A stretch of 64,000 nucleotides of DNA from a candidate division WOR-3 bacterium (GTDB taxonomy: Bacteria; Hydrothermota; Hydrothermia; Hydrothermales; JAJRUZ01): positions 172,800 to 236,799 of the forward strand of contig JBDRZL010000001.1 in NCBI GenBank assembly GCA_039803925.1. The letters are read 5' to 3'. The position numbers were made by a program, and so were the translations under genes. This document shows positions 5,116-63,223 of this stretch, piece by piece. A model generated the notes under the pieces. It saw nothing but the letters and a program-made list of their open reading frames with translations, made no database searches and was not told the DNA's origin. The first letter of the stretch is position 1; each line of letters opens with the position of its first letter.

Positions 5116-5116
5116 G

Positions 5117-5145: not shown

Positions 5146-5171
5146 AAAAATATATAAATACAAATAATTGT

Positions 5172-5202: not shown

Positions 5203-5209
5203 TAATTTA

Positions 5210-5485: not shown

Positions 5486-5495
5486 GGAGGTAAAA

Positions 5496-6272: not shown

Positions 6273-6303
6273 TAATATAGAAATTAAAGTCCACTTTTAA
6301 TAG

Positions 6304-6334
6304 CCCCCCTCGTAATGAGGGGGGTTTTTATTTT
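6304..6334 (+). terminator. rho-independent terminator
   Basis: A perfect 8-bp GC stem CCCCCCTC/GAGGGGGG with loop GTAAT is followed by TTTTTATTTT. It lies 32 nt after the stop of the 5496-6272 gene. Confidence 0.8.
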
Positions 6335-6376
6335 AAATAAGTGAAAAAATATTTTTGTCTTTCTTAATATTAAATT

Positions 6377-7393
6377 ATGAAAAAATTATTTTTAATTGTT
6401 TTTTTCATTTTTTATGCCTGTATAAAATCACCCCATGAGGTGGGTTGGTTTCTAACTCTCAGAATACCTGGAAAATTAAAAAAAACTACTGTTTTGGATG
6501 AGGTTTCTAAAAGTGATAAATATAGAGTTATTGCCGATTCGGTTTTTAATATACAGAAAATTATTCACCCAAATCTTAACAATTATTCAGGTTTTTCAGA
6601 ATTAGCAAGAGACACTTTAAGAAGGTTTATCCCTAAGATTATAGATACAACACGGAGTGAATTTGGTTCGCTTTTATTTCTTATATACGGAGGAACAAAA
6701 TATAAAGGTAATGTTTTAAATTCACCCTGCACCTTGAAAACTAAAATTTTAGCTTTTAGTTGGAATGATATCTCAGATACTTTTGAACTTTTTAAAAAAG
6801 ACAGTGTAAAGCAAGAAGTATCAGGTAATTTCAATATAATTCACAGATTACCCTTTAATGATTTTCCAGCCGGTCCTCATCTTTTTGTTATCATTCCTCA
6901 GATTTTAACAGGAACAGCAAATTTTGATACAGTAGAAACTTTTAAAGAGGCTCTTTTTGGTGCAAGAATTCTTGGTGATAACATTTTAACATTTACCGAT
7001 ACAATTAAAAACGATAATAAAGATGTAAGAGATTTAGCAAAAGAGAACAGGATTCAAAAAATTTTTCTTCATGCAGATGTTACCCATTCTTTACCTGCAA
7101 GATTTTATTTATCCATTCAAGTTTTTACAGAAAATAGTGACACTTTTATGCCTGTTAATAATTTGCTTTTCAGGGCTTCTCCTAAAAATATAGATGGTGT
7201 ATCTATTGATAGCACAAAGTTTTCCTTTGAAATTGATATTCCAAAGGAAGTTATAGATCTTGCTAAGGATTCACTTATTTTTTACAAAGCATTTGCTATT
7301 GTGGACAGTCAGGGAAATGCCTATATAAAACCTCTTGACTTTTTAAAATTAAAAGGCTATCTTGGAATTACAGTATATACATTGGAGAGATAA
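6377..7393 (+). CDS. hypothetical secreted protein or lipoprotein
   Basis: It has an N-terminal signal peptide ending FYAC. I recognise no domain. Confidence 0.5.
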   Translation: MKKLFLIVFFIFYACIKSPHEVGWFLTLRIPGKLKKTTVLDEVSKSDKYRVIADSVFNIQKIIHPNLNNYSGFSELARDTLRRFIPKIIDTTRSEFGSLLFLIYGGTKYKGNVLNSPCTLKTKILAFSWNDISDTFELFKKDSVKQEVSGNFNIIHRLPFNDFPAGPHLFVIIPQILTGTANFDTVETFKEALFGARILGDNILTFTDTIKNDNKDVRDLAKENRIQKIFLHADVTHSLPARFYLSIQVFTENSDTFMPVNNLLFRASPKNIDGVSIDSTKFSFEIDIPKEVIDLAKDSLIFYKAFAIVDSQGNAYIKPLDFLKLKGYLGITVYTLER

Positions 7394-7395
7394 TC

Positions 7396-9738
7396 ATGAT
7401 TAAATTATTACTGATTTTTTATCCTCTCTATAATACCTTAGGGGAGAATATCCCTGTGAGTTACCCATTTGGAAGTCAGAGCATCTTTTTCAACCCTGCC
7501 ATAATTGGTTCAGAATTTAACCCTTCCTATACTATTTCACTTCTTGGAACAAACCTTGCCCTTACTAATAACGCATTATCAATATCCCTTTATAATGATA
7601 TAATGTCTGCTAATGGTGATTCACTTAATAGGGAATTAAAAGATAAAATTTTAAAATACTCAGGTAATGCATGGAAATTGAACCATCTTTCTTATTTTTC
7701 TCCTTTTTCATTTTCAATAGGAAGGTTTGCTATGGGGTTTAGATTAATTCAAGGGTCTTTTATGATGATTCCAGAACCCTGGTTAAGGCTATTATTATAT
7801 GGAAATGAACTTGATAAAGTTTACGAAGCTAATAAGAATAACACAGCACTTCAGGTTCTTAATCTTTTTGAAATAAAAACGGGTTTTGGAAACGGTATTT
7901 TCCTTGATCCAAATGAAAAATTCAGATTACTTTATGGACTTTCTTTTTCTTTCTATATTTCAGGACCCTATCTTGAATTAAGTGATATTAATGTTAAATT
8001 AAATTCCTCAAGTGATGCAATAACAGGAAATGATTTTTTAAGTATAAGAGCAGATACAAACTTTTTTAACTTTGGATATTCAATGGATTTTGGTTTTGGT
8101 TTTGAATATAAAAAACTTTTTAATTTTTCTTTTGGATTTTCCAATATAATATCAAATCTAAACTTTTCAAAAGGAGTAATTTTTAGTCACAGGGGAAATC
8201 TTGATTCCCTTTATATAGGTGAAGGAATAGATTACGACACAATTGCAACCGATGATGTGGACACAATACCCGGAGCTTTCAGTGTAAAATTACCCTTGAT
8301 TTTCAAATTTTCAAGTTTTTACAGGCATCCAGAGGATAAATACAGATTGTTTTTTGCCTATGAACAGGGTTTTAAAAACACAGCCTTTTCTACAAAAACA
8401 CCGAGAATTTCCTTGGGTAGTGAGTATTTTGTCCATCCAAGAATCCCTTTAAGAGCAGGGTTTACTTTTGGAGGTTACGAAGGTTTTGCCTTTTCTCTTG
8501 GATTTGGTATAATAAGTAGGGATATTTCATCCATAAATATAGGAATATCACAGCATAGAGGAATTTTTACAGGAAGTAGAGGAATTTCTTTATCCTTTTT
8601 AACTGAATTTCATTCACCTTTTAAGGGTAAATTTAAGTTTAGAATTATAGATTCACTTACCAATAAACCTATAGCAAATGCTGTTTTAAGGTTAATTGAT
8701 ACAAAAGATAAAAAGGTTTTTGAAGGTTTAAGCGATGTTAATGGTGAAATAAAGGGTGAAATAAAAGGAGGTAAGTATAAATTTGATGTTGAGGCAGATG
8801 ATTATTATTCAAAATCAGGTCCTTTTGTAATAAAATCCGGAGAAAAAAGAGAAGAAAAGGTTCCTTTAAAAACAAAATTTGGAATCTTAACACTTTATGT
8901 TAAGAATAAAGATAATGAAGAGCCTTTAAGTGATGTGGATGTTACTATTCAATATAAAGAAAAAACTACAAAGGTAAAAACAGATAGAACAGGAACTCTA
9001 AAATTTAAACTGGAAAAAGGAGAATATACATTCAGGTTTGAACACCCTGATTATGTTCTCAAAACTGAAAGAATTTCCATAGAACCGGGAACAGTTAAAG
9101 AGGTAGATGTTTTCCTTTCAACAAAATGGGGAATTGTGAAAGGTAAGGTTTTTAATGCTCAAACAATGGAAACTCTTTCAGGTGATATAGAAATTTACCC
9201 TGAAAATAAAGATAGTTTAATTCAAAAAATTGTATCTCCTTCTGAGGGAACTTATGAGGTAAAACTCCTTGAAGGTATTTATCTATTTAAAGTAAAAGTT
9301 CCCAATTATATACCACAGGCAGCTTATGTTCAGGTTAAAGGTGGAGCTGTTTTAATAAAAGATTTTCCTATGTTAAAGGAAAAAATGGTATTTACCTTTA
9401 GAAATATATATTTTGATTTTAACAAAGCAACAATTAGACCTGAATCTTATCCTATACTTGATTCAATTTCTATAATGCTAAAGGATAATCCTACAATAAT
9501 TGTTGAAATAGGTGGTCATACTGATGAAAGGGGTTCAAATGCATACAATAAAAAATTGAGCCAGGGAAGAGCTGATGCTGTCAGGATTTATTTTATTGAT
9601 AAACATGGAATAGATCCATCAAGATTAATAGCAATTGGTTACGGAGAAGATAGACCTGTTATAAGAAATGCAAAAACTGAAGATGAACACCAGATGAATA
9701 GAAGGGTTGAATTTAAAATACTGGGAGAAAAGAAATAA
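7396..9738 (+). CDS. OmpA-family outer-membrane protein with three CarbopepD_reg-like beta-sandwich repeats
   Basis: The C-terminal OmpA_C-like domain reads NIYFDFNKATIRPES...GHTDERGSNAYNKKLSQGRADAV...NRRVEFKIL. Three internal repeats have the pattern FKFRIIDSLTNKPI...VLRLID, VDVTIQYKEKTT and GKVFNAQT. The start abuts the upstream gene stop. Confidence 0.7.
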   Translation: MIKLLLIFYPLYNTLGENIPVSYPFGSQSIFFNPAIIGSEFNPSYTISLLGTNLALTNNALSISLYNDIMSANGDSLNRELKDKILKYSGNAWKLNHLSYFSPFSFSIGRFAMGFRLIQGSFMMIPEPWLRLLLYGNELDKVYEANKNNTALQVLNLFEIKTGFGNGIFLDPNEKFRLLYGLSFSFYISGPYLELSDINVKLNSSSDAITGNDFLSIRADTNFFNFGYSMDFGFGFEYKKLFNFSFGFSNIISNLNFSKGVIFSHRGNLDSLYIGEGIDYDTIATDDVDTIPGAFSVKLPLIFKFSSFYRHPEDKYRLFFAYEQGFKNTAFSTKTPRISLGSEYFVHPRIPLRAGFTFGGYEGFAFSLGFGIISRDISSINIGISQHRGIFTGSRGISLSFLTEFHSPFKGKFKFRIIDSLTNKPIANAVLRLIDTKDKKVFEGLSDVNGEIKGEIKGGKYKFDVEADDYYSKSGPFVIKSGEKREEKVPLKTKFGILTLYVKNKDNEEPLSDVDVTIQYKEKTTKVKTDRTGTLKFKLEKGEYTFRFEHPDYVLKTERISIEPGTVKEVDVFLSTKWGIVKGKVFNAQTMETLSGDIEIYPENKDSLIQKIVSPSEGTYEVKLLEGIYLFKVKVPNYIPQAAYVQVKGGAVLIKDFPMLKEKMVFTFRNIYFDFNKATIRPESYPILDSISIMLKDNPTIIVEIGGHTDERGSNAYNKKLSQGRADAVRIYFIDKHGIDPSRLIAIGYGEDRPVIRNAKTEDEHQMNRRVEFKILGEKK

Positions 9739-24124: not shown

Positions 24125-24703
24125 TTATTGACCGGATGTAAGCACAAGACCTATATTTGCTTTGGAACCAAACCCACCAATAGCATAAGCCTGAGCTGCA
24201 TGGGTCGCAGTTGTTGGAGTCCATCCACCACCGGGAAGGAGATCATAAGAACCATACTGAATCATTCCTGCACTACTTATATCCCAGGTACCGTCAAAAA
24301 TACCGTCTCTACCATCATCAACACCACCAGGACCACTTTCAAATGCATTAGTCGCAGCCCTTACAGGGTTATGGAAGTCCACAGGTAATAAAATTGGACC
24401 CCCACTATTATCAGGTTTTGTAGCAGCGGCAATTCCAGCCACACTTGTATTATCGTTACCACGAGGTAAACCAACTTCTTGTCTTGCATTTGCCACAGTT
24501 GAGGAAAAATTTACCGGATAGTATCCTTCTGTATATGTAGAAAAAGCTTCAACAGCAGTCTGGGCTGTTTTCATATTACTTTGAACTGCTGCATCTTTTG
24601 CCTTTGACACCATCGCTATGAAGTTTGGTATGGCTATAGCAGCCAGTATACCTATGATCACCACCACGATGAGTAGCTCTATCAGGGTAAAACCTTTTTT
24701 CAT
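24125..24703 (-). CDS. type IV pilin / pseudopilin-like protein (major pilin candidate)
   Basis: The N-terminus MKKGFTLIELLIVVVIIGILAAIAIPNF is the prepilin cleavage/methylation motif. The protein is 192 aa, Gly/Ala/Thr-rich and has no Cys. The true start is at 24703 with SD AGGAGG; the ORF-track start at 24742 is an over-extension. GC content and third-position codon usage are much higher than in neighbouring genes. Confidence 0.8.
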   Translation of the reverse strand: MKKGFTLIELLIVVVIIGILAAIAIPNFIAMVSKAKDAAVQSNMKTAQTAVEAFSTYTEGYYPVNFSSTVANARQEVGLPRGNDNTSVAGIAAATKPDNSGGPILLPVDFHNPVRAATNAFESGPGGVDDGRDGIFDGTWDISSAGMIQYGSYDLLPGGGWTPTTATHAAQAYAIGGFGSKANIGLVLTSGQ

Positions 24704-27367: not shown

Positions 27368-27886
27368 TTAAGGAAGAATTAAATCAAGGGGACCTTTTAA
27401 TCCATAGGCAGTTATCACATATTTAGAAGCAACTTCTCCTTCAGTTGCAATATTTCCATCTTCCTTAAATCCTGTATAATAAACACACCCTATTGGCGGA
27501 ACAGGAGGTGGACCTGAAAAAAGATTGTCTAAAGCATTTTCATCGGGAAAAAAAGGATTTTTAAAACTCTCATGGGGGAGAAGAAGAGCATTCTGAGAAA
27601 AAGGCGGCTTTCTTCTTCCATCAGCAATGGATTTTTCTCCATCTGGATGACTTACTAAAGAAGGATTAACATCCTTAACCTTTGTATCAATACCACCTGG
27701 ATATTGACCAAGCGATGTAACAGAAAAAATTTCAACAACAGTATGAAGTATATGCATATTATTTTTTAAAGAGGCTTCCCTTGCGTTATTAACAAGTCTT
27801 ATATAATTTACTATTCCTATACTTGAAAGTATTCCAATTATAACAACCACAATCAAAAGTTCAACAAGGGTAAATCCCTTTTTCAT
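27368..27886 (-). CDS. type IV pilin / pseudopilin-like protein, paralog of 24125-24703
   Basis: The N-terminus is MKKGFTLVELLIVVVIIGILSSIG. Its C-terminal region resembles pilin 1 (SGPPPV..VYYTGF..ITAYGLKG versus ESGPGGV..YAIGGFGSK). Unlike pilin 1 it uses the AT-rich codon set. Confidence 0.75.
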   Translation of the reverse strand: MKKGFTLVELLIVVVIIGILSSIGIVNYIRLVNNAREASLKNNMHILHTVVEIFSVTSLGQYPGGIDTKVKDVNPSLVSHPDGEKSIADGRRKPPFSQNALLLPHESFKNPFFPDENALDNLFSGPPPVPPIGCVYYTGFKEDGNIATEGEVASKYVITAYGLKGPLDLILP

Positions 27887-36629: not shown

Positions 36630-37626
36630 ACATTTCCTCCAAAGTTTTTAAAAGAAGCTTTTTTGTATTGATTAAATCCTCTTCATATAAAAGTGAGGCT
36701 TTTGAATGAATATATCTGCATGGAACAGCTATTACACAAGATTTTACTCCTTTATTTGTCAAAGAAATAACTCCTGCATCCGTTGCTCCAGTTAAAGGTA
36801 TTTTCCACTGAAATTTAATATTATTTTTAAAAGCTGCCTTTTCTATATATTTAATTAAAACTTCATCAACTATAAGAGATCTATCCATTTTTGTTATAAC
36901 AGGTCCCCCTCCCATCTTCGGGTAATACTCCTCCTCTGGGTGATATGGTTCAAAAGCAAAAGTTCCTTCAAGAATAAAGGCAAGATCAATATTTTTTCTT
37001 TTTGAAGCAATCCTTGCACCCATAAGACCTGTTTCCTCCTGAGTTGTAAATATTAAAACAGAATCACAGGGTAAAGTATCATCAAGGATTAAAGAAAGAA
37101 GAATAGAACTACCTGCTCTATCATCAAAAGCTTTTCCCTTATAAACTCCTTTTCCAATTTCTTCAAATTTAGTCAAAAAAACACCTTCTTCACCTATATC
37201 TACTTTTCCTTTTGCTTCCTCTTTTGAGTAAACACCTATATCTATTACAAGTTTTTCATAGGTATATTCTATGCTGTTTTTTTTGTGTGGTGGAAGGCTC
37301 GAAATCACACCTTTAACACCATTTAAAAGTTCAACCTCAGTTCCTGGTAATATTTCAGCTTCAAGTCCTCCAAGAGGTTTAAATTTTAAAAAACCATCCT
37401 GGGTATAACCTGTAATTATAAAACCAACCTCATCAATATGAGCCAGAATCGCAATGTTTAAATCTGTTTTATTTTCTCCCTTTTTGTATACATAAATATT
37501 ACCAAAAAAATCCTCTTCATAATTAATCCCTTTTTCCTCCAGTCTTTTTTTAATAAAATTTCTAACTTCTTCCTCTCTTCCAGGAGGCCCTTTTAATTCT
37601 GATAATTCTTTTAAATACTCAATCAT
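36601..37626 (-). CDS. M42 family aminopeptidase (second, tandem paralog)
   Basis: Motifs HIDEVGF and DDRAGS are present. It is 341 aa. It overlaps the downstream M42 paralog by 29 nt. Confidence 0.75.
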   Translation of the reverse strand: MIEYLKELSELKGPPGREEEVRNFIKKRLEEKGINYEEDFFGNIYVYKKGENKTDLNIAILAHIDEVGFIITGYTQDGFLKFKPLGGLEAEILPGTEVELLNGVKGVISSLPPHKKNSIEYTYEKLVIDIGVYSKEEAKGKVDIGEEGVFLTKFEEIGKGVYKGKAFDDRAGSSILLSLILDDTLPCDSVLIFTTQEETGLMGARIASKRKNIDLAFILEGTFAFEPYHPEEEYYPKMGGGPVITKMDRSLIVDEVLIKYIEKAAFKNNIKFQWKIPLTGATDAGVISLTNKGVKSCVIAVPCRYIHSKASLLYEEDLINTKKLLLKTLEEMYGENFKGIV

Positions 37627-40505
37627 CTATTTTTTAAAGTTTTTTTTAAAGAATCTATCTTATTTTTAAAGGGCTCAGGTAGATTACGCATCCTCTCGGT
37701 AAGTTTTATAATCTCTCTCAATTTTTGTGTATCACCTTTCAGATTATATAGGGTCAAAAAGTCCATTATTAAGAAGGGATCAGCAAATCTAAAACTCAAA
37801 GCTTTATTAAAATTCTCCTCTGCTTTATTTAAATCTTTAAGTCCCAAATAACTTTCACCAATCACCCTATAAATCTCAGGAGCCTGAGCTTCTTTTAAAA
37901 TATCCTGAGCCTTCAATAAACCTTTTTCATATTCACCTTTCCTATTATAAAGATCAGCAAGAGTGAGTTTCACTGCAATCCAAGCTCTTTCCTCCTCAGG
38001 TTCACCTGATTTAACATCACCCTGGAAAAGTTCAGAAAATTCAAACTCTTTAATAGCCTTTTCAATTTCTCCAATACTCTGATAATAAAGACCAAGAACT
38101 ATTGCAAGAGAACGATACTGACCAAGTAATCTATCATGAGTTAAATCCTTAAAAACACTTTCATCTTTTTTACCATCTTTCAATATCCCTCTGTATCTAA
38201 ACCTATTATGTAAAAAGTCCTCTGTTTTACTAACATCCATACCTGTTCCAAATGGTGATGTAATTTCCTGTTTGAAAGGTGTAACTCTATAAACCATACC
38301 TTCAAGTAAAAGATAATCTTGAAAATCCCTGTAAGATTTTCTTTCACAGGTCATAGAAAAAAATAAAGGTGGTTTAGGCAATTTGTTTTTACCTTTTTCA
38401 ATTACTTCCTTCATAAATTCTCTTCCATCCCATAAGAAAATTTCAGGTATTGAAACCCCTGTGGGTAATGTTCTTGTTTTCGTATTTTCATTAAATTCAT
38501 AGCCAAATACACCAGCAATAATATCCCTTATCATTATATCTCTCACAAGAACAATATCTTTTTCTGTTCTGAAAGGAATAAGTTTTTTTATTTCATCCTC
38601 TGTAAAATGAATAGGAACTCCCCATCTCTTGAGCTGAATGTTATACCAGTCAGTATTTAAAAGAGAAAGGTTAGCAACAATAACACTCTTCTTATAACCA
38701 AATAAAATCTGTAAAGCCCATAGGGGAAATGTATCATTATCACCGTTTGTAAATACTATTCCACCATCATCAACACAGGAAAGTAAATTATAAGAGTAAT
38801 CTTCAGCAATATAATTTTTACTTCTATCAACTTTATGATAGAAAGCACTTATCTGCCAGATTGGAATAAAAATTGAAAAGATAATAAAGATATATTTTAA
38901 ATAAACACTGAATTTTTCTTTTAAATTTTCAAAAGAAAGTCTTATTATTTCAAAAAGTCCAAATCCAGCATAGAGACCAAAGAAAAAGTATCCAGGAATA
39001 AAAAAGTAATCCCTATCTCTAACCTCTGTAGGAATTGAGTTTAAAAGTTGTAAGAAACTTGGGTTATTTAAATCAAATATTGATAAAACTTCTCTTATTC
39101 TTTGAGAATATAAAAATTTGGGAAACTGCTTTATGAAATTTAGAAAATCTATTAGAGTTGAAGGGTAATTTAAATTTAATTGAACTATTAAACCAAGAGT
39201 TCCTATTATAAAAGCTCCACCAAAAAGAACAAAACTTTTCCAGTCAGAATATATATGCGAAATTATACCTATTATTCCAAGTATTACAATTAAGGGGATA
39301 AACTGCCAGGAAAAATAATAAAAAAATCCCCATATTTGATCTATAAAAGACCAGAATTGATTATAAACAGGAGTTGAAAAAAACTCACCTTGTCTTACAT
39401 TACTTGTCCTTCTTGGATAAATATTCATAGGTTCGTATTGTTTCCTTGATAAAACATCCCAGAAAGATTGCCATGTTTTTGGTTCAACCTGATTTATTGG
39501 AGTATCAAATCTTGACCTTATCAAAAGATAAAATTCAGGTGTAACTCCAATAATTATAAAAATTAAAGCAAAACCCCTTGCATCAAGAAAGAGTTTTGTA
39601 TATATGAAAGTTATAAGTAATAAAAAGATTGTGGAAACAAAAATTAAAATTTTCCACTGCTGAAATATTGAAACCAAGGACAAAATAAATAGAATAAAAT
39701 AAATTATTTCAAAAGAATTAAAAAGAAATTTTTTATTATGCTTTTTCCATATGGAAGTATAAGAAAATAAAGAACCTGTAATTATAAAAAGAAGAAGAGC
39801 CTTCAAACTGAAAGGCTCATATGTTGCCCTTAAAGCTCCTGCAAGAAGCAAAAAAATCCCTATACTGGATAAAAATTCTATATTAAAAATTTCTTCTTTT
39901 TTGATAACTGCAATGAAAATAAGCAAAACAGGAATTATAATAAGAGAAAGTAAATGAATTCCAGAACTTAAAGATAATAAGTAAAAAGCTGTTATAATAT
40001 ACCTAAGGGAATCATTTTTATCTTTTTTCTCCCACCAGAGAAAAAGTAAATACACTGAAAGAGTAATAAATAAGGTTGAAGGAACATAAGTCTCAGCTTC
40101 TATTCCACTCCACCAGGTTGTAAAGGTAAAGGGTGCACATAAAGAACCCATAAAAGCTGAGAAATGCTTTAAAATATCAGGTAGCTTTTTAGAAACCCTG
40201 TTAAAGATTTTATATAAAAGTAAATAGCCAATTCCTGCTGAAAATGCTCCTGAAAGAATAGCAGCAAGAGTAATTTTCTGGACTACATTTAAAAAGGGTA
40301 TAGGGAGCAGAGAAAAGAATCTCCCTACAATAACATAAAAAGGTGTTCCTGGAGGATGAGGTATTCCAAGAATCCAGGAAGTTGCCAAAAATTCACCCAC
40401 ATCCCAGAAAACAATTGTTGGAGCCGTTGTTTTAAGATAAATAACAAAAGTTATTATAAAAGATAAAGAGAAAAAAATTTTTTTTGTTAAATTTTTATTT
40501 TCCAT
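37623..40505 (-). CDS. large polytopic membrane protein with C-terminal TPR repeats (GT-C / DUF2723-like glycosyltransferase candidate)
   Basis: At 960 aa it has more than 12 predicted TM helices. The N-terminal loop reads WDVGEF...GIPHPPGTPFY. The C-terminal ~150 aa are TPR-like. Confidence 0.45.
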   Translation of the reverse strand: MENKNLTKKIFFSLSFIITFVIYLKTTAPTIVFWDVGEFLATSWILGIPHPPGTPFYVIVGRFFSLLPIPFLNVVQKITLAAILSGAFSAGIGYLLLYKIFNRVSKKLPDILKHFSAFMGSLCAPFTFTTWWSGIEAETYVPSTLFITLSVYLLFLWWEKKDKNDSLRYIITAFYLLSLSSGIHLLSLIIIPVLLIFIAVIKKEEIFNIEFLSSIGIFLLLAGALRATYEPFSLKALLLFIITGSLFSYTSIWKKHNKKFLFNSFEIIYFILFILSLVSIFQQWKILIFVSTIFLLLITFIYTKLFLDARGFALIFIIIGVTPEFYLLIRSRFDTPINQVEPKTWQSFWDVLSRKQYEPMNIYPRRTSNVRQGEFFSTPVYNQFWSFIDQIWGFFYYFSWQFIPLIVILGIIGIISHIYSDWKSFVLFGGAFIIGTLGLIVQLNLNYPSTLIDFLNFIKQFPKFLYSQRIREVLSIFDLNNPSFLQLLNSIPTEVRDRDYFFIPGYFFFGLYAGFGLFEIIRLSFENLKEKFSVYLKYIFIIFSIFIPIWQISAFYHKVDRSKNYIAEDYSYNLLSCVDDGGIVFTNGDNDTFPLWALQILFGYKKSVIVANLSLLNTDWYNIQLKRWGVPIHFTEDEIKKLIPFRTEKDIVLVRDIMIRDIIAGVFGYEFNENTKTRTLPTGVSIPEIFLWDGREFMKEVIEKGKNKLPKPPLFFSMTCERKSYRDFQDYLLLEGMVYRVTPFKQEITSPFGTGMDVSKTEDFLHNRFRYRGILKDGKKDESVFKDLTHDRLLGQYRSLAIVLGLYYQSIGEIEKAIKEFEFSELFQGDVKSGEPEEERAWIAVKLTLADLYNRKGEYEKGLLKAQDILKEAQAPEIYRVIGESYLGLKDLNKAEENFNKALSFRFADPFLIMDFLTLYNLKGDTQKLREIIKLTERMRNLPEPFKNKIDSLKKTLKNR

Positions 40506-57380: not shown

Positions 57381-57631
57381 TGGAAATTTTTGAATGTAAA
57401 AGTTGTGGTTCTTTAATTGGTATTCAGGGAGAAAAAGAGCCTTTATTCTGTCCCTTATGTAGGGGTAAAATGATAAAAATTGAACTTGATGTTGACTTGA
57501 AAGTAAAAATCAAATGTCCTGAATGCGAAAATATATTCTTTGTAAAGGAAAACTTTTCTCCCTATAAATGTGCTTTTTGCAATTTCACCTTCATTTCTTC
57601 CCCTTTCCGTAAATTTGAAGAAAGACTCTAA
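57377..57631 (+). CDS. small zinc-ribbon protein
   Basis: Its 84 aa carry four CxxC pairs (CKSCG, CPLCRG, CPECEN, CAFCN). Its start overlaps the upstream stop. Confidence 0.45.
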   Translation: MMEIFECKSCGSLIGIQGEKEPLFCPLCRGKMIKIELDVDLKVKIKCPECENIFFVKENFSPYKCAFCNFTFISSPFRKFEERL

Positions 57632-58599
57632 TAAAGAATACTAAATATCTGTATTCTTGAATTCATCTGTTCTACCACATAAACTTTTTTATTTCTTATA
57701 AAAATTCCCGCTGGTAACCTGAATTCACCTGGATTCCACCCTATTCCCTCTATACCAAGATATACGTTTCCGTACTTATCAAAAATTTGAATTCTGTGTA
57801 AGAAGGAATCTGTTACATAAATATACCCTTTTTCATCTACTGCTATACCTTTTGGCCTTACAAAAAAACCTGGTGCATTACCAGATTTACCGAAAACATT
57901 AATAACCTCTCCTTTTGGGTTTAAAATCTGAACTCTAAAATTCCCCCATTCACATACATAAATATTTCCTTCTGAATCAAGATTTATTCCAGTTGGATAA
58001 AGAAATTCTCCTGGTTTATTTCCTTTTCTTCCGATTGTATAAAGAAATTGACCCTCAAAGCTAAAAACCTGAATTGCCATGAGACTGTCATCAAGCACAT
58101 ATATCTTTTTTCTGTAATCGTCGACAGTAAGATTAACCGGTTTATAAAGCCCCTTTTTAATAACTAAATTTCCCTCAAATTCAGGTATTTTTATTCCATA
58201 AACTGCTTTTGCACCTGGATCAGCAACAAAAAGCATATTAAGTGCCTCGGAAAAGGCAACTCCTGTGGGTCTTGTGAATCTAAAACTTCTTGTTCCCTGA
58301 TACCATTTAACTATTTTGTTTTTTTGATCTATAAAAACTATAGCAGCAAAACCAGGGTCAGCCACATAAATTCTTTCTTTACTATCAACAAAAATTCCGA
58401 AAGGATATTTTAAAAGTCTTGTTTTTTTTATTCCGAGAATTTTATCTACTGTTCTTTTTATTATATTTCCCTCTCCTACAATATCCTCTTTAGTAAATAA
58501 GATTCCCTCATATTTTATTTTTGCTTCTTCAGGAGGGGGTGGCCATACAAACTCTTTTTTTTCCTGAGAAATTAAAATTAAAAATACTAAAAAATTCAT
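57628..58599 (-). CDS. NHL-repeat beta-propeller protein, secreted
   Basis: It has a signal peptide. About six NHL-like repeats are present (YVADPG, LFVADPG, IYVLDD, IYVCEWGNFRVQIL, IYVTDSFLHRIQIF, VYVVEQMNSRIQIF). It is the last gene of the multiheme cytochrome cluster. Confidence 0.75.
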   Translation of the reverse strand: MNFLVFLILISQEKKEFVWPPPPEEAKIKYEGILFTKEDIVGEGNIIKRTVDKILGIKKTRLLKYPFGIFVDSKERIYVADPGFAAIVFIDQKNKIVKWYQGTRSFRFTRPTGVAFSEALNMLFVADPGAKAVYGIKIPEFEGNLVIKKGLYKPVNLTVDDYRKKIYVLDDSLMAIQVFSFEGQFLYTIGRKGNKPGEFLYPTGINLDSEGNIYVCEWGNFRVQILNPKGEVINVFGKSGNAPGFFVRPKGIAVDEKGYIYVTDSFLHRIQIFDKYGNVYLGIEGIGWNPGEFRLPAGIFIRNKKVYVVEQMNSRIQIFSILY

Positions 58600-59222
58600 C
58601 TTTTAACCTCCGGTTTATGGGGATTATGGCATTTAATACAATCATCACCTTCAAAATGAAAATCAATTTTATGACAGTTATTACATAAATCCAAATTTTT
58701 TAAAAGCTTAGATTTACCTCTATGAAGTTTATGACAATCTATACAGGCTAAACTCAAATGTTTCCCTGAAAAAAGTTCAATCTCTAAATGACATTTTTCA
58801 CAAAAAATAGGATCAATACTTCTTAAAAGGTATTTATAATTCCTTTCATGAGGATCATGGCAGGTTGTGCACTTAATTTCTCTCTCTTTTTCATCAATAG
58901 CATATTTTCTAATGGGGTGATTGTCTTCTTTATAGTTAATTCCTAAAAAAATAGAAGAAGTATCAGGAATTTCATAAAATTTTGCTATATTGCTATATAA
59001 AGTTATAAGATAATTTTTATCAGTATGACAGTTCATACAGGTAAGGGAAACATAGTCAAAATCTTTAAAGTTTTCTTTTAATTCATCATCTGGTATTATT
59101 TTAATAAGAAAAGGACCTTTTGAGTTATGGGATGAATGACAAAATTTACATATCCTCTCTCCTTCTCTATTTCTAAAATCATGAGGAAAATTGACTAAAA
59201 TTAAAAAGAAAAAGAGTTTCAT
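58596..59222 (-). CDS. multiheme c-type cytochrome (7 CxxCH)
   Basis: The heme motifs are CKFCH, CMNCH, CTTCH, CEKCH, CIDCH, CNNCH and CIKCH. It has an N-terminal signal peptide. Confidence 0.85.
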   Translation of the reverse strand: MKLFFFLILVNFPHDFRNREGERICKFCHSSHNSKGPFLIKIIPDDELKENFKDFDYVSLTCMNCHTDKNYLITLYSNIAKFYEIPDTSSIFLGINYKEDNHPIRKYAIDEKEREIKCTTCHDPHERNYKYLLRSIDPIFCEKCHLEIELFSGKHLSLACIDCHKLHRGKSKLLKNLDLCNNCHKIDFHFEGDDCIKCHNPHKPEVKR

Positions 59223-60049
59223 TTCTTATGGCATACAGAACATACAGGTTTATTTGGCCATTTTAAATGAAATCCAAATTTTGTGCCATGAGAGTTGTGA
59301 CAGCTATTACAAAAGATACCTTTTTTATCACCAGGGTGATTTGCAACAGGATGATGGATACCGTATAGTTCCTTTTCATGACAAATTATGCAGAGAGAAT
59401 TGATTTTAGTTTTTAAAAATTTATCCTCCATAGAAGAATGCGGATCATGACATATAACACAATCACCTCTTGCATAGGGACTGTGAAGATAAAAACCTTC
59501 TTCAATTTCATGGCATTCTTTACAAACTTTTTCTGAATTTGGTCTATCAAAAATACTTTTATGACAGTTATCGCAAGCTAATTCCTCAAAGGGTGGATGA
59601 AATCTTAGACCTTTATCAAATTTTTCCTTATGACAGGTAAAACAGTCAAGTTCTTCACTTTTTGAAACTTTTTTATATGTTATTGAATGGCAATTTTTAC
59701 AAAATTTTTCCACTTCTGATTTATGAAAATTATATAATTTTGCATCAACTTTGAAGTTTTCAGAAGGAAGTGAATAAATAATAAGAGTCTGTGATTCAGT
59801 TTTATTATTTTTTTCATAATAAAGAGTTATTTCATTTTTACCATTTTTAAGTTCTACTATAAAATGTTTTATATTTTCAGCTCTAAAAGTATCGTAAATA
59901 ATTTCTGGTTTTAAAAGCCATGCTTTATCAGCTTCAAGGATTATTCTTATAAATCTATCCTTAACAAAGATAGCTGATGGGGGTGTTAAAACTGCAAAAA
60001 AAAGTAAATAAATCAATATTCCGCCTTTCCGTGACATGCAGGTCCGCAT
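59219..60049 (-). CDS. multiheme c-type cytochrome (8 CxxCH) with an N-terminal heme-free domain
   Basis: The heme motifs are CKNCH, CFTCH, CDNCH, CKECH, CVICH, CIICH, CNSCH and CSVCH. The start is probably M5 (MSRKGG, at 60037) rather than 60049. Confidence 0.85.
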   Translation of the reverse strand: MRTCMSRKGGILIYLLFFAVLTPPSAIFVKDRFIRIILEADKAWLLKPEIIYDTFRAENIKHFIVELKNGKNEITLYYEKNNKTESQTLIIYSLPSENFKVDAKLYNFHKSEVEKFCKNCHSITYKKVSKSEELDCFTCHKEKFDKGLRFHPPFEELACDNCHKSIFDRPNSEKVCKECHEIEEGFYLHSPYARGDCVICHDPHSSMEDKFLKTKINSLCIICHEKELYGIHHPVANHPGDKKGIFCNSCHNSHGTKFGFHLKWPNKPVCSVCHKK

Positions 60050-60897
60050 ATTCCTCCTTTTTTATTTTTTTCAAATTTAAAAGTCAATATATAATCATTG
60101 GGACCAAACTTTTTTCCACCTTCAACAAAAAATGGATTATCCGAATAATGGGGATTATGACACAAAGAACAGGTTATTCCCTTATCCTTTTTGACGTGAA
60201 ATTCATGTAAATTTAATCCATTTTTTTTAAAATTAGTTTTTTCTGAAAAAATAGATTCTGGATCATGACAGTTAAAACAGAGTTCATATTGAAGGTATGT
60301 AAAGGTAGTGTAAAGTTTATTTGGATACATTGAATTAAGAAGAAGAGGAAATTGAGAAGAGTGGGGATTATGACAGTTTATACAATTTTCTAAAGGAGGA
60401 TGTTTATATTTTTTTATCTTATAAAAATTTTCCATTTCTGTATGGCATTTAAAACAGAGAGTATTTACCTGATTTAATAAATAAGATTTAGAATTATTAC
60501 CGTGAACATCATGACAATCCTTACAATTACCCTCAATAAAGGGATTATGGATACTTATCAAATTTTTTAAAATTTCTTTATGACAGTTTGAGCAAAGATA
60601 AGGAAGTTTTTCCTTAAGAAGATGATTGATAGGGGAAGAGTGAGGATTATGGCAGATAGAACAGTCCTCATTCACAGGTGGATGTTTCGATGAAGATTTA
60701 TCAGAATGGCAGGATAAACATAGTTCAGTAACATTTTCAATCTTTTTAAATGGGTGTTTTCCGACAAGTTCATGACACGAAGAACAATCTTCTTTTGCAG
60801 GTGGATGGAGAACTTTTTCCTCAATTAATAAATCATGACAACCCTTTTTAATACAATTTTCCTGCTGAAAAATTAAAAATAATAAAATAATTTTCAT
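60013..60897 (-). CDS. multiheme c-type cytochrome (9 CxxCH plus CX3CH and CX4CH candidates)
   Basis: The canonical motifs are CSSCH, CLSCH, CSICH, CSNCH, CKDCH, CFKCH, CINCH, CFNCH and CSLCH. There is also an N-terminal CIKKGCH (CX4CH) and a C-terminal CGPACH (CX3CH). Confidence 0.85.
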   Translation of the reverse strand: MKIILLFLIFQQENCIKKGCHDLLIEEKVLHPPAKEDCSSCHELVGKHPFKKIENVTELCLSCHSDKSSSKHPPVNEDCSICHNPHSSPINHLLKEKLPYLCSNCHKEILKNLISIHNPFIEGNCKDCHDVHGNNSKSYLLNQVNTLCFKCHTEMENFYKIKKYKHPPLENCINCHNPHSSQFPLLLNSMYPNKLYTTFTYLQYELCFNCHDPESIFSEKTNFKKNGLNLHEFHVKKDKGITCSLCHNPHYSDNPFFVEGGKKFGPNDYILTFKFEKNKKGGICGPACHGKAEY

Positions 60898-62471
60898 TTT
60901 AATTTTATATTTCTTTTAACTAAAAAGTGGAAAATTATATTACTTTCACTTTCAGGATATATTAAATAAATATAAGTAAAACCTAAACTTAAAATCAAAT
61001 CCCCATAATTTCTTTCAAAAGCTATTTTTAAATCATTTTCAAATTTCTCACTGAAATAAAATTTTTCCTCCAGAGTGAACATATTGAATAATCTTAAAGG
61101 AGCACTGAAAGAAATTCTTATAAATTCCTTTCTTGTTAAGGAATACTCTGTTTTAATGTATTCATTTACATAACTGAAATTAAAGGGAATTTCTTTTGTG
61201 TTAAATTCTACTCTTGTATGATACTTTATCCAAGTGTTTATATTATTATTTATTCTGGTGATATCTCTGAAATAATAAAAATTTAAGGATAAAAGGTATC
61301 TTTTTGAATTATAACTTAAATTGATTCCTGAATAATAACCGTATTTTTTTTCATTTTTTAAAATCCATGTGTCATTAAAGGTTTTATAATATAAATCAAC
61401 AAAAAATCTCAAATTTTCAAAAATTAAAAAATTTTTTTGTTCATATAAATTACCTTCTTTTAATAGATAGCCCCATCCATTTCCTTCAGGGTTCTGTGAA
61501 AAAAATACTGAAAATCCTGGTGAAATTGTAAGTGTTCTTGGTAAATTTAAAAATTTTAAATAGAAAGTCTGAGAAAAATCCTCATAAAAATTTTTTCCTT
61601 CTTTCAGGGAATTTGTTTGAAAACCTAATGTGGTATTAGAAATAAATCTTTCTGAAAAGAATTTTTTAAATGAGGTATTTAAAAAGTTAGTGGTTGTAAA
61701 TTTTGATCTATTGAAAGAATAGTACATATCAAAAAAGTAATTTCTATTTTTAAAAATATGATATACAAAACTTGAGTTTATGTATGTAAATGAGTTCCTG
61801 AAAAAGTATTTCGTATCCCACTTAAAATTAATATCACCTTTTTTATAGTTATAATTAAAATTAAAATTTTCTATATTCTGGTATAGGCTTTTAAATTCTC
61901 TATTGTAATATAAAGAAAAAGTATTTTCTTTAAAGGAATAATTTGAGGTGAATGCTAAACTTTTTTTATTAAAACTATTTTCTTTTCCCCAGGAATATGA
62001 GAAATTTAAATTAGGAAAATTTCTAATTAATAGTCCCTGCGAGATTATATAAGTTAAAGTTTTTCTTTCAAAAATTATTTTGTCCTCTTTTTTAAAATCT
62101 TCTTTTTTTACAGTAAATTTAAAAGGAAACTTAGATTTTTCTAATAAATTAAGATTAAATAAAAAAGGAGCTTTTAAAAAATTTTTTTCTTCTATACCAT
62201 AAAGATTTTTATTCCAGCTCTGCCATAAAAGGTATGTTTTAAGATTGTAATTTAATAATTCTCTCTTATAAATAAAACCATTAATAAATAAATTTATTGA
62301 ATTTTCATAATCTTTATAAAATGGTTTTGTAAGAGTGTTTTTAAAATTCCCATTTACATAATACCTTTCTGAAAGAAAATATAGATTAAATTTTGTAATT
62401 CCTGCATTCAAAAATGATATTAAAAATAAAGAGGGGAGGATTTTTATCCCCCCCTCTTTAAAGACTATCAC
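60894..62471 (-). CDS. porin-like outer-membrane beta-barrel candidate of a porin-cytochrome complex
   Basis: It is 525 aa with a signal-peptide-like N-terminus (KILPSLFLISFLNAG). It is extremely N/Y/F/K/S-rich with an alternating beta-strand pattern. It sits between the tetraheme and deca-heme cytochrome genes. Its 5' coding end overlaps the terminator hairpin at 62428-62460. Confidence 0.5.
   Translation of the reverse strand: MIVFKEGGIKILPSLFLISFLNAGITKFNLYFLSERYYVNGNFKNTLTKPFYKDYENSINLFINGFIYKRELLNYNLKTYLLWQSWNKNLYGIEEKNFLKAPFLFNLNLLEKSKFPFKFTVKKEDFKKEDKIIFERKTLTYIISQGLLIRNFPNLNFSYSWGKENSFNKKSLAFTSNYSFKENTFSLYYNREFKSLYQNIENFNFNYNYKKGDINFKWDTKYFFRNSFTYINSSFVYHIFKNRNYFFDMYYSFNRSKFTTTNFLNTSFKKFFSERFISNTTLGFQTNSLKEGKNFYEDFSQTFYLKFLNLPRTLTISPGFSVFFSQNPEGNGWGYLLKEGNLYEQKNFLIFENLRFFVDLYYKTFNDTWILKNEKKYGYYSGINLSYNSKRYLLSLNFYYFRDITRINNNINTWIKYHTRVEFNTKEIPFNFSYVNEYIKTEYSLTRKEFIRISFSAPLRLFNMFTLEEKFYFSEKFENDLKIAFERNYGDLILSLGFTYIYLIYPESESNIIFHFLVKRNIKLK
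62428..62460 (-). terminator. intrinsic terminator/attenuator downstream of the tetraheme cytochrome gene
   Basis: The minus strand reads AAGAGGGGGGGGAT-AAAAA-TCCTCCCCTCTTTATTTTTAAT. It is a 9 to 10-bp GC stem followed by a T-rich tract. It lies 34 nt after the cytochrome stop, inside codons 4-15 of the annotated porin-like ORF. Confidence 0.6.
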
Positions 62472-62493: not shown

Positions 62494-63126
62494 TTACTTT
62501 CTGTGACAATCAAGACAAATCTGGCTATTGGTTGTATCACCTCTCAGGAATCTATATGCAGGTAAGAAAACATTTGTATTGTGTGGGTCATGACATGTGG
62601 CACAGGTCATAACTGAATCAGCACCTGCCTGCTGGGCTGAAAAATTATAAAGAGGATAAGGCCAACCACTTGGAGGGTTAAACTCTGTACTCGGAAGAAT
62701 TCCTGGTGCAACATCCATATCTACGGGGTGAGAGTAAATAAGAGAATCATTAGTTCCGCTTGTTACATCAGGTGGATTCTGAACAGCAGTTCCCACAGGT
62801 CTGGGACCATATGAATAGAGTGTTCCCATATCAGCTGCAGTCTGAGTTCCATCATGACAGGATAAACAGGCGTAGGTTATCCAGGATGCTCTTGTCATGG
62901 GGTCAGTATATGTTCCGTTATAAAGGGCAGTTATTGTTGGAACATATGCTCTGTTCCAGAGATAATAAAAGTTCTGATTGGGATTAGCATTGTGAGGGGT
63001 ATGACAGTAAATGCATACCTGTCCTACATTGGGTCTATTGAAGTCATGTCTACTTCCCACTACTGTTGCATGGAGCCAAATAAAAAAGGCTCCAAGACTT
63101 ATTATTGCTATTATATATTTTTGCAT
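62494..63126 (-). CDS. tetraheme c-type cytochrome, secreted (210 aa)
   Basis: It has a signal peptide. The heme motifs are CIYCH, CLSCH, CATCH and CLDCH. AAGGAGGG sits 2 nt from the ATG. GC and C-ending codon usage are markedly higher than in flanking genes. Confidence 0.85.
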   Translation of the reverse strand: MQKYIIAIISLGAFFIWLHATVVGSRHDFNRPNVGQVCIYCHTPHNANPNQNFYYLWNRAYVPTITALYNGTYTDPMTRASWITYACLSCHDGTQTAADMGTLYSYGPRPVGTAVQNPPDVTSGTNDSLIYSHPVDMDVAPGILPSTEFNPPSGWPYPLYNFSAQQAGADSVMTCATCHDPHNTNVFLPAYRFLRGDTTNSQICLDCHRK

Positions 63127-63147
63127 ATGTCCCTCCTTTTTTATTAA

Positions 63148-63160
63148 GGATTCGAACCTA
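63148..63160 (-). promoter_or_regulatory. 5' leader mini-hairpin (minus strand AGGTTCGAATCCT) 8 nt upstream of SD AAGGAGGG of the tetraheme cytochrome gene
   Basis: This is the same motif and spacing as at 5172-5186 and 24728-24740. Confidence 0.45.
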
Positions 63161-63194
63161 AAATTATAATTAATAATTTTTAGGTCTATTAATT

Positions 63195-63223
63195 ATATTA
63201 AACAATCTTTTAAAAAATTTCAA
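63195..63223 (-). promoter_or_regulatory. sigma70-type promoter candidate (TTGAAA-N17-TAATAT) for the tetraheme cytochrome gene
   Basis: On the minus strand, TTGAAA is at 63223-63218, the spacer is 17 nt, and TAATAT is at 63200-63195. Confidence 0.4.

Follow-up and report, generated by a model that had tools for sequence, protein, structure and literature searches.

Does the small tetrahaem cytochrome gene near one end of this locus encode the subunit of an extracellular cytochrome filament? A sequence-only reading of the window, i.e., the whole 64,000-nucleotide stretch analyzed here from a candidate division WOR-3 bacterium, had speculatively proposed as much, describing a secreted tetrahaem cytochrome at the head of a conduit cluster as a candidate OmcE-like filament subunit. 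The gene is an ORF of 210 aa with an ATG start, a signal-peptide-like N-terminus and four CXXCH motifs, which bears out the first part of that description.

62494..63126, minus strand: gene of an OmcE-family tetrahaem c-type cytochrome, putative nanowire subunit (ORF, phmmer and family profile)

A phmmer search of the PDB with the 210-aa protein returned OmcE filaments as the only significant matches, namely, 7tfs_A (E = 1.1e-14, residues 19-210 of the query against 31-232) and 9yuq_N (E = 1.5e-14, full length). 7TFS is the cryo-EM OmcE nanowire of G. sulfurreducens and 9YUQ the OmcE bundle of D. soudanensis; identity is 30% to the former protein over 193 aligned residues and 29% to the latter. 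With a family profile built from 109 homologues, both structures were matched end to end (7TFS, 2.3e-56; 9YUQ, 6.3e-50), and the next match was local (7e-7). Structures of c3 and c7 cytochromes were absent from the PDB matches of the profile even at E<=1, as were the archaeal structures 8E5F and 8E5G, which the single sequence did not retrieve at E<=10 either. OmcS aligned with the profile over a local stretch of 25 residues only (E = 0.0013). Judged by its sequence, then, the 210-aa protein is an OmcE homologue.

Among curated models, Pfam Cytochrome_C7 scored 30.1 bits on residues 162-209, Cytochrom_c3_2 scored 21.2 bits, below its cut-off, on residues 171-208, and Mtrc-MtrF (PF22113) scored 17.1 bits, under the 30-bit cut-off. 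The OmcE-like family is named by no Pfam or NCBIfam model, so that its genes carry the label 'cytochrome c3 family protein', as relatives of our protein do in database records, and escape metagenomic surveys of electroactive potential.

The N-terminus, MQKYIIAIISLGAFFIWLHA/TVVG... (the slash marks the predicted cut), is hydrophobic and resembles a signal peptide. The mature product has exactly 8 His and 8 Cys, all 8 Cys lying within CXXCH motifs. The export signal and the haem-binding residues are arranged as follows.

63067..63126, minus strand: predicted Sec signal peptide, residues 1-20, cut LHA/TVVGSRH (inferred by eye and from the OmcE alignment)
63046..63048 and 62992..62994, minus strand: H27 and H45, distal-ligand candidates near motif 1, aligned to TKH and TPH of OmcE
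63001..63015, minus strand: haem motif 1, CIYCH (C38-H42), invariant in the 109 homologues and aligned to CVFCH of OmcE
62854..62868, minus strand: haem motif 2, CLSCH (C87-H91), followed by an invariant D92 (homologue alignment)
62728..62730, minus strand: distal His H133 (SHP), invariant, aligned with NDHP of both solved OmcE proteins
62581..62604, minus strand: haem motif 3, CATCH (C175-H179), with distal His H182 (CATCHDPH; homologue alignment)
62503..62517, minus strand: haem motif 4, CLDCH (C204-H208), 2 residues short of the C-terminus, as in OmcE (CLGCHKK)

The four CXXCH motifs and H27, H45, H133 and H182 are invariant across the 109 sequences, and all align with both solved OmcE proteins. 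OmcE of D. soudanensis has 8 His in total, each paired with a His of the query in the alignment. As it has exactly eight, all of them are ligands; and since all eight haem-ligand His are kept in the query, whichever of them crosses the subunit interface is kept too. Counted from the predicted cut, the first ligand His falls at mature position 7, the same as in OmcE (GAA/SIKNTKH) and in D. soudanensis OmcE (AMA/VIKDTKH). H19, located inside the predicted signal peptide, is variable, being Y or Q in relatives. An AF2 monomer computed from the 109-sequence alignment and lacking haems was a poor model (mean pLDDT 55.7); a Foldseek search of the PDB with it returned 7TFS only, with no significance (E = 0.12, TM 0.33).

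The OmcE-like gene is the first of a same-strand set that continues with genes for a beta-barrel, for three multihaem cytochromes of 9, 8 and 7 haems, and for an NHL beta-propeller, in agreement with its proposed place at the head of a conduit cluster.

60894..62471, minus strand: predicted large outer-membrane beta-barrel of ~505-525 aa
60013..60897, minus strand: 294-aa cytochrome with 9 CXXCH, resembling DmsE/MtrA-type decahaems (Pfam Paired_CXXCH_1, 8e-40)
59219..60049, minus strand: 276-aa cytochrome with 8 CXXCH (ORF and motif count)
58596..59222, minus strand: 208-aa cytochrome with 7 CXXCH (ORF and motif count)
57628..58599, minus strand: 323-aa NHL-repeat beta-propeller with a conserved N-terminal VWPPPPE..KI.Y (Pfam NHL, 2e-20)

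The start codon of the barrel gene is uncertain because the GTG start called for it overlaps a terminator described below. In sequence, the barrel resembles neither MtrB nor any curated family. Its comparison with the canonical barrel family by hhalign gave a probability of 82-91%, and hmmsearch with the barrel found a canonical barrel as best non-self match among 4257 ORFs (E = 0.0011). Phmmer against the ORFs of the loci retrieved the orthologue only, and the canonical barrel HMM gave nothing significant for the window barrel, even with filters off. Homologues were few, numbering six, all lineage-specific, in a search of 5.8 billion proteins and three in an exhaustive profile search of 1.84 billion representatives. 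These searches point to a highly divergent, lineage-specific barrel, shorter than the canonical one, whose link to the canonical family we consider of moderate strength. The 294-aa cytochrome scored 97.7 bits against NCBIfam decahem_SO, under the 192-bit cut-off, and matched the post-barrel cytochromes of other loci with phmmer E values of 1e-52 to 1e-74. In canonical clusters a 13-haem cytochrome follows the barrel; the 9-CXXCH protein resembles it, and the order of barrel and then 13-haem-like cytochrome is kept in the window. The propeller has clear homologues in other clusters (E down to 3e-63), and comparison of the N-termini showed that it does not have the lipobox cysteine that they carry. 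No glycosyltransferase island was found after the window cluster.

The cluster is conserved in five relatives; in those at 95, 82, 74 and 59% identity, it is kept as a unit with differing flanks, and in each of the five related loci it has a single OmcE-like gene. In one other locus (L084), Rieske/cyt b/NapC-type genes, which may stand for an inner-membrane quinol oxidase, lie beside the cluster. Farther afield, NHL homologues lie <=10 kb from an OmcE-like gene in 73 of 80 loci, and one barrel family accompanies OmcE-like genes in 51 of these 80. Many canonical clusters hold at least two OmcE-like paralogues, including 5-haem forms. The module of OmcE, NHL propeller and barrel occurs in metagenome-assembled genomes labelled as >15 phyla. 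In Petersen et al. (bioRxiv 10.1101/2025.10.22.684050), likely nanowire OmcE homologues are told from other tetrahaems by whether a large beta-barrel and a beta-propeller are encoded nearby; the minimal cluster described there combines OmcE and a barrel with propellers and a pair of multihaem cytochromes. The window has such a large barrel in the neighbourhood, with multihaem cytochromes alongside, and in its gene content the six-gene set is the published omcE cluster in compact form. Clusters of omcE have been reported from five phyla, and the phylum of WOR-3/Hydrothermales (Caldifarciminota) lies outside those five.

We then asked whether the gene bears the marks of a very abundant protein, as had been claimed. 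One of them is its own terminator.

62417..62460, minus strand: intrinsic terminator directly 3' of the subunit gene, with a 15-bp GC-rich stem, a 4-nt loop and a T-run (folding)

Taken as 62460..62427, it has a dG of -27.8 kcal/mol (z = -4.4 versus shuffles), and all five orthologous loci have it, 5 of the 15 pairs showing compensatory changes. In other phyla, a terminator of the same type follows 27 of 87 OmcE-like genes (31%) versus 3 of 202 accessory genes (1-2%; p = 6e-13). Upstream of the gene lie the following signals.

63132..63137, minus strand: Shine-Dalgarno AGGAGG, 5 nt from the ATG, kept in the five orthologous loci
63147..63159, minus strand: 5'-leader element A-GGTTCGAATCC-T, resembling a tRNA T-arm, conserved in the five orthologous loci; this is the leader hairpin of the sequence-only reading
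63192..63163, minus strand: nearer promoter candidate TTAATA-N18-TATAAT, 10/12 consensus bases (consensus scoring)
63223..63195, minus strand: promoter candidate TTGAAA-N17-TAATAT, 9/12 consensus bases (consensus scoring)

The promoter that had been called near-consensus, TTGAAA-N17-TAATAT, is thus outscored by a closer site, and promoter-like sites are barely enriched in this AT-rich region of 30% GC (15 versus 9.2 +/- 3.1 in shuffles). Footprinting over the five orthologues revealed no single conserved -35/-10 pair and did not settle the choice between the two candidates; in the 95% relative, a 21-nt deletion runs through the proximal one. The Shine-Dalgarno sequence is strong, yet ordinary for this DNA, its duplex energy of -12.3 kcal/mol ranking 9 among 52 ORFs. 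As for the leader, the sequence GGTTCRA(A/G)TCC is conserved in the five orthologous loci, but the hairpin does not hold up: the conserved stem has 3 bp only, with one covarying pair, and the hairpin does not stand out from shuffled versions, 26 of 200 of which are equally stable (z = -1.2). ARAGORN gives no tRNA there, arguing against a tRNA remnant, and Rfam has nothing above gathering scores, its sub-threshold matches being driven by the terminator.

The preference for C-ending codons is real but modest. Third-position C (C3 = 0.186) is the highest of 52 ORFs (window mean 0.078, sd 0.028); at synonymous sites, the share of C is 0.26 versus 0.155 in two-fold Y-ending codons (p = 0.017) and 0.196 versus 0.089 in four-fold codons (p = 0.001). 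In the 82%-identical orthologue, the preference is unexceptional against the neighbouring genes. Of the proposed marks of abundance, the strong terminator and the C bias therefore stand, whereas promoter and hairpin are weak and the Shine-Dalgarno sequence is not distinctive. The pilin gene that had been noted about 38 kb away is a true type IV pilin gene (24125..24703, minus strand), but, lying 37.8 kb from the subunit gene among unrelated housekeeping genes, it is regarded here as irrelevant to the cluster.

What kind of tetrahaem cytochrome is this? One answer would be a soluble periplasmic electron shuttle of the c7/c3 type with all ligands supplied within the chain, as the Pfam Cytochrome_C7 and Cytochrom_c3_2 matches and the 'cytochrome c3 family protein' records of relatives might suggest. 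Those matches, however, span only the last doubled-CXXCH stretch, in the C-terminal ~40-50 residues. Cytochromes c7 have ~70 aa and c3 ~110 aa; the mature protein, with 190 aa that are mostly coil, is far larger. The profile matched OmcE end to end at 2e-56 and no c3/c7 chain of the PDB at E<=1, so that at the sequence level there is no sign of the compact c7/c3-like fold that had been named as counting against a filament, and the identity was rejected on this ground. Together with the conserved synteny with barrel and propeller, this makes a periplasmic shuttle highly improbable. The protein might also sit at the tip of a filament, terminate it or be another minor part of it, with the gene for the major subunit at some other place in the genome, of which we see 64 kb. 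Many canonical clusters do hold two or more OmcE-like paralogues, 5-haem forms among them, and Petersen et al. (10.1101/2025.10.22.684050) describe a possible 'stopper' paralogue with nine His, the number found in our precursor. The ninth, however, is the non-conserved H19 of the predicted signal peptide, the gene is the sole OmcE-like gene of its cluster in all five related loci, and it stands first and carries the subunit-type terminator; we find such a minor role very unlikely.

More weight belongs to a third alternative, in which an OmcE-family protein does not polymerize but acts as a monomeric or small-oligomer cytochrome at the cell surface. It would sit where MtrC does in MtrCAB, on the outside of a porin-cytochrome conduit made up of the barrel and the MtrA-like 9-haem cytochrome. 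The sub-threshold similarity of the 294-aa cytochrome to the DmsE/MtrA decahaem family (97.7 bits) fits this role. Solved OmcE filaments come only from G. sulfurreducens and D. soudanensis; bundled filaments that would fit OmcE have been seen in G. metallireducens. Petersen et al. (10.1101/2025.10.22.684050) caution that tetrahaems resembling OmcE are widespread and that not every one of them need polymerize. The low-confidence AF2 monomer and its insignificant match to 7TFS likewise leave room for it. Against it, the mature protein has exactly 8 His, with the N-terminal one as far from the predicted cut as in both solved filaments, and the cluster context is the very one used to pick nanowire-type homologues. 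In addition, the strong, conserved terminator would uncouple expression of the subunit from that of the other cluster genes, which suits a protein made in large excess over the conduit. We think a non-polymerizing surface cytochrome rather unlikely.

The filament reading remains the one that we favor: a Sec-exported OmcE-family tetrahaem cytochrome, copies of which probably make up an 'insulated' extracellular cytochrome filament as its repeating unit. Counting against it are the poor AF2 model, the identity of only ~30% to the solved proteins, the divergence of the barrel and the missing lipobox of the propeller. Homology to both solved OmcE filaments, the retained haem ligands and the cluster context make the protein a credible candidate for a filament subunit of known kind, in WOR-3/Hydrothermales. 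The precursor would be exported and its signal peptide removed, and four haems would be joined covalently at the four CXXCH motifs. Subunits may then stack head to tail, one of the four non-CXXCH His supplying the second His ligand to a haem of the next subunit, which would yield a continuous haem chain. By analogy with His16 of OmcS, the bridging residue is most likely H27 (mature His7), on the N-terminal arm. The five downstream genes would make up the cell-envelope part. In this arrangement, the large outer-membrane barrel may serve as secretion pore, anchor or MtrB-like sheath, the three multihaem cytochromes, of which the 9-haem one is MtrA/DmsE-like, would take electrons across the periplasm and through the barrel, and the NHL propeller could be an assembly or scaffold factor. 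The strong terminator after the subunit gene would result in far more subunit mRNA than accessory mRNA, by analogy with pilin and fimbrial operons.

The presence of the module in >15 phyla, with the subunit typically followed by its own terminator, suggests a general, transferable nanowire cassette. We give roughly even odds to the proposal that OmcE-type conductive filaments are made in WOR-3/Hydrothermales (Caldifarciminota) by an uncultured, probably thermophilic bacterium that relies on a pared-down form of this cassette with six genes. Besides the subunit, whose gene is set apart by a terminator, this form would comprise three small multihaem cytochromes, one propeller that is not lipidated and a lineage-specific barrel of reduced length. 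If the protein polymerizes, OmcE-type nanowires reach a deep-branching uncultured lineage so far not linked to extracellular electron transfer, and the cluster would be among the smallest complete wire gene sets, with six genes in ~5.5 kb and no glycosylation island. Such a compact set would lend itself to heterologous reconstitution and to studying the way in which the filament is secreted or anchored by barrel and propeller.

Among known systems, OmcS of G. sulfurreducens (6EF8), a hexahaem filament, and the archaeal PcECN and AvECN (8E5F, 8E5G) are insulated filaments in which stacked bis-His haems alternate with T-shaped ones, and inter-subunit His ligation occurs in both OmcS and OmcE. 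We propose the same functional class for the protein described here; it has no meaningful sequence similarity to these filaments and is of the OmcE type. With MtrCAB and other porin-cytochrome (Pcc) conduits, the cluster shares a large outer-membrane barrel gene beside that of a DmsE/MtrA-like multihaem cytochrome. It differs from MtrCAB in that the outer cytochrome is OmcE-like rather than MtrC/OmcA-like, an NHL propeller is included, and the barrel is unlike MtrB by sequence.

The closest likeness is to the OmcE proteins themselves. OmcE of G. sulfurreducens (GSU0618; 7TFS) is also a tetrahaem cytochrome of similar length (232-aa precursor versus 210), in which the four CXXCH motifs and four distal His come in the same order and at the same spacing; a ligand His likewise lies 7 residues past the cut, and the C-terminus reads CxxCH(K/R)K. 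Its gene, too, is found with those of a large beta-barrel, of one or more beta-propeller proteins and of multihaem cytochromes. Nevertheless, ~70% of the residues differ, and our protein, from WOR-3/Hydrothermales rather than Desulfuromonadia, has shorter loops and no counterpart of the 'TGTNPPTMKTGDVT' insertion of OmcE. In the cluster described here the barrel directly follows the subunit, one propeller stands in place of two, three smaller cytochromes replace the pair with 11 and 13 haems, and no glycosyltransferase island comes after. OmcE of D. soudanensis WTL (DSOUD_2954; 9YUQ), which forms bundled antiparallel filaments, has 8 His in the mature protein, as does ours. Both belong to the minimal, glycosylation-free cluster type that Petersen et al. 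(10.1101/2025.10.22.684050) associate with marine, alkaliphilic and thermophilic genera.

The gene at 62494..63126 (minus strand) is exactly one ORF of 210 codons plus a stop, in a window of 29.9% GC. Its product has a hydrophobic N-terminus, with a predicted signal-peptide cut between LHA and TVVG, and four CXXCH motifs (CIYCH, CLSCH, CATCH, and CLDCH), in agreement with the sequence-only reading, which had described a small secreted tetraheme cytochrome. After the predicted cut, the mature protein contains exactly 8 Cys and 8 His residues, by sequence just enough for four covalently attached bis-His hemes. Its nearest database relatives, at 95% and 82% identity, are encoded in MAGs that carry the names candidate division WOR-3 and Candidatus Hydrothermales, the latter now placed under Caldifarciminales, phylum Caldifarciminota, in the NCBI taxonomy. 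The OmcE family (query and all homologues) has no Pfam or NCBIfam model of its own; only the C-terminus of the query scored above a curated cutoff, against a generic doubled-CXXCH domain. Public records accordingly name OmcE homologues "cytochrome c3 family protein."

A phmmer search of all PDB sequences returned two significant matches to the query, both full-length. The first, at E=1.1e-14, is the OmcE nanowire of Geobacter sulfurreducens solved by cryo-EM (7TFS chain A). The second (9YUQ, E=1.5e-14) comprises 16 chains of a 218-aa protein deposited as "putative multiheme cytochrome c"; it is the bundled nanowire that OmcE forms in Desulfuromonas soudanensis WTL (Petersen et al., bioRxiv 10.1101/2025.10.22.684050). 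A family profile of 109 sequences (the query plus 108 homologues) matched both end to end (7TFS, 2.3e-56; 9YUQ, 6.3e-50); its third-best PDB match was local, over 40 residues (7e-7). Columns invariant in the 109-sequence alignment are the four CXXCH motifs, H27, H45, H133, H182, W57, Y69, D92, and P134. Direct alignment with the two solved OmcE proteins (30% and 29% identity) placed the four extra His residues of the query opposite the OmcE motifs TKH, TPH, NDHP, and (K/D)VH. As D. soudanensis OmcE has only eight His residues, all are heme ligands, and each is matched in the query. An AF2 monomer without hemes was a poor model (pLDDT 55.7), and Foldseek comparison of it with the PDB gave a single, nonsignificant match, to 7TFS (E=0.12, TM 0.33), to which we give no weight. 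The sequence-level evidence settles family membership, though not polymerization, and the query is almost certainly a member of the OmcE family, as the earlier proposal of an OmcE-like protein had it.

Part of what holds an OmcE filament together is a His that ligates a heme of the adjacent subunit. Judging by the alignment, this inter-subunit His, whichever of the four it is, is retained in the query. By analogy with OmcS His16, which we take to be an inter-subunit ligand, N-terminal H27 would be the expected bridging residue. The N-terminal ligand His lies seven residues past the predicted signal-peptidase site in the query and in both solved OmcE proteins.

Several signals around the gene had been read as marks of a very abundant protein, and its own terminator is the best supported of them. 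The hairpin has a 15-bp stem (dG -27.8 kcal/mol, z = -4.4) and is kept at every one of the five orthologous loci; 5 of its 15 base pairs show compensatory changes. In fetched loci of relatives (L003 to L082), a strong hairpin with a T-run lies within 90 nt after 27 of 87 OmcE-like genes (31%), across many phyla, against 2 of 127 NHL genes and 1 of 75 multiheme genes (1 to 2%; OmcE-like versus accessory genes, Fisher p=6e-13). Such enrichment is expected for a major structural subunit produced far in excess of the machinery that assembles it, and the hairpin and T-run mark the subunit gene with a pilin-like transcriptional signature. As called mechanically, the next ORF, of 525 aa, overlaps the hairpin at its 5' end (62427..62471, minus strand, in the window, where the called start is a GTG at 62471; 10661..10720 in L001, a relative's locus). 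Translated, the hairpin resembles a short signal peptide (ILPSLFLISFLNAG), in a frame that is likewise open in the 82% relative. Either the true start of the 525-aa ORF is a more downstream codon, or the terminator is part of its coding sequence, or read-through is controlled.

The proposed near-consensus promoter and leader hairpin fared poorly. The promoter, TTGAAA-N17-TAATAT, has 9/12 consensus positions and a nearer candidate, TTAATA-N18-TATAAT, has 10/12; promoter-like sites are barely enriched in the AT-rich spacer (15 versus 9.2 ± 3.1), and comparison of five orthologous upstream regions singled out neither candidate. The leader hairpin folds no more stably than shuffled controls do (z = -1.2), and comparative folding left a 3-bp stem only, with one covarying pair (A-U/G-C). 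The best-conserved upstream sequence in five loci (the window, L085, L001, L083, and L084) is the following:

63147..63159, minus strand, leader element GGTTCRA(A/G)TCC

This element, about 10 to 20 nt before the Shine-Dalgarno site, may mark the mRNA 5' end or a protein-binding site. It resembles a tRNA T-arm and T-loop; the window contains no tRNA. The Shine-Dalgarno sequence itself, AGGAGG 5 nt from the ATG, is real and kept in orthologues, but it is not distinctive, since its predicted anti-SD pairing ranks only 9th of 52 ORFs. The claimed preference for C-ending codons holds in part: the gene has more third-position C than any other of the 52 ORFs (0.186 versus 0.078 ± 0.028), with an approximately twofold excess at synonymous sites (two-fold Y-ending codons, p=0.017; four-fold codons, p=0.001), but amino-acid composition contributes, and in the 82% orthologue the preference is not exceptional among its neighbors.

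The subunit gene does head a cluster, as suggested. Five same-strand genes follow, coding for the 525-aa protein, cytochromes of 294, 276, and 208 aa (9, 8, and 7 CXXCH motifs, respectively), and a 323-aa NHL β-propeller (57628..58599, minus strand); the cluster's four cytochromes are the only multiheme ORFs in the 64 kb. The NHL protein keeps the family N-terminal motif VWPPPPE..KI.Y and, unlike homologues in other phyla, has no lipobox cysteine. All exported proteins of the cluster have unusually short hydrophobic N-termini. The six-gene unit occurs in unchanged order in relatives with 95, 82, 74, and 59% subunit identity, and because its flanks differ among them, it behaves as a module.

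The 525-aa protein has no Pfam or NCBIfam match, and sequence searches gave only lineage-specific homologues: six in a set of 5.8 billion proteins, three in one of 1.84 billion representatives. Profile-profile comparison linked it to the larger, canonical barrels of omcE clusters elsewhere (82 to 91% probability, P 1e-5 to 1e-7), with a common N-terminal motif (nGfiYh..fLny versus tgyIyHPnfL). A reverse hmmsearch of 4257 ORFs ranked canonical barrels top (best E=0.0011), and AF2 with six sequences predicted about 24 to 26 β-strands in one unbroken series (pLDDT 70 to 89 over residues 100 to 460). On the profile match, the reverse search, and the modeled strands, we accept it as a predicted large outer-membrane barrel, probably a divergent, shortened member of the omcE-cluster family.

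Relatives were scanned with one genome per species, giving 474, of which the best 80 loci were analyzed. Labels among these 80 include Acidobacteriota (Geothrix fermentans), Planctomycetota, Bacteroidota, Calditrichota, Chlorobiota, Nitrospirota, Campylobacterota, Aquificota, Deferribacteres, Verrucomicrobia, KSB1, Gemmatimonadota, Desulfobacterota, and others. Of the 80, 73 encode a homologue of the window's NHL protein within 10 kb, and one family of 580- to 965-aa heme-less proteins occurs in 51 (31 of 40 among loci of at least 15 kb). A frequent order, found also in a Geobacter MAG, is OmcE-like, NHL, 5-heme protein, barrel, NHL, 11-heme, 13-heme. The window's 294-aa cytochrome matches the 13-heme protein that follows the barrel in other clusters (E 1e-52 to 1e-74), so the barrel-then-cytochrome adjacency is preserved.

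Individual loci add further observations. A MAG labeled Thermoplasmata archaeon (JBHHWA010000004.1) carries an OmcE-like gene, then a 584-aa ORF, an NHL propeller, and an 11-heme cytochrome; an outer-membrane-type cluster is unexpected on an archaeon-binned contig and could reflect misbinning or lateral transfer. In the 59% orthologous locus (L084, JGI 3300002481, 385..7834), divergent genes beside the cluster encode Rieske, cytochrome b, multiheme cytochrome, and NapC/NirT-type cytochrome proteins, with a 635-aa multiheme cytochrome also encoded there. These genes are a candidate quinol-oxidizing feed into the wire; the window ends at 64000, before any equivalent region would appear. L001 encodes a 644-aa 11-heme cytochrome near its cluster (3878..6858).

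The pilin noted at about 38 kb proved to be a true type IV pilin, 37.8 kb from the subunit gene, but no link was seen and the genes around it are unrelated. Two proteins in the window have the type IV pilin N-methylation motif:

24125..24703, minus strand, the type IV pilin
27368..27886, minus strand, second protein with the motif

No pilus assembly genes adjoin either, and ABC-transporter genes lie between them. At 0.43, the GC content of the first exceeds that of every other window ORF. A 960-aa protein with a TMEM260-like protein O-mannosyltransferase domain (E=2e-34) is encoded 22 kb from the cluster (37623..40505, minus strand). Geobacter OmcE is glycosylated.

That the query actually forms filaments is a reasonable expectation, which we hold with some reserve. 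We give distinctly less credence to the main rival, in which an OmcE-like cytochrome at the cell surface caps an MtrAB-like conduit without polymerizing; the 9-heme cytochrome is DmsE/MtrA-like and could make such a conduit with the barrel. The two readings are compatible, as a filament could be mounted on an MtrAB-like conduit, a model also discussed in the literature. A role as a minor or cap subunit is unlikely because the ninth His of the query lies inside the signal peptide and is not conserved. A periplasmic c7/c3 cytochrome, the outcome that would have contradicted the filament proposal, was rejected at the sequence level: the family profile matched no c3 or c7 cytochrome in the PDB at E<=1, nor any archaeal nanowire protein.

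An OmcE-type nanowire subunit is an already known kind of protein; the novelty lies in the host lineage. Petersen et al. (bioRxiv 10.1101/2025.10.22.684050) name five phyla, none of them WOR-3/Caldifarciminota, and, with MAG labels taken as given, the module looks to be spread far wider than reported. These authors regard as likely nanowires only the OmcE homologues with a large outer-membrane β-barrel and a β-propeller lipoprotein nearby, and their smallest clusters comprise OmcE, a barrel, two propellers, and two multiheme cytochromes. With three multiheme cytochromes and one propeller instead, the window holds a compact variant of the omcE cluster.
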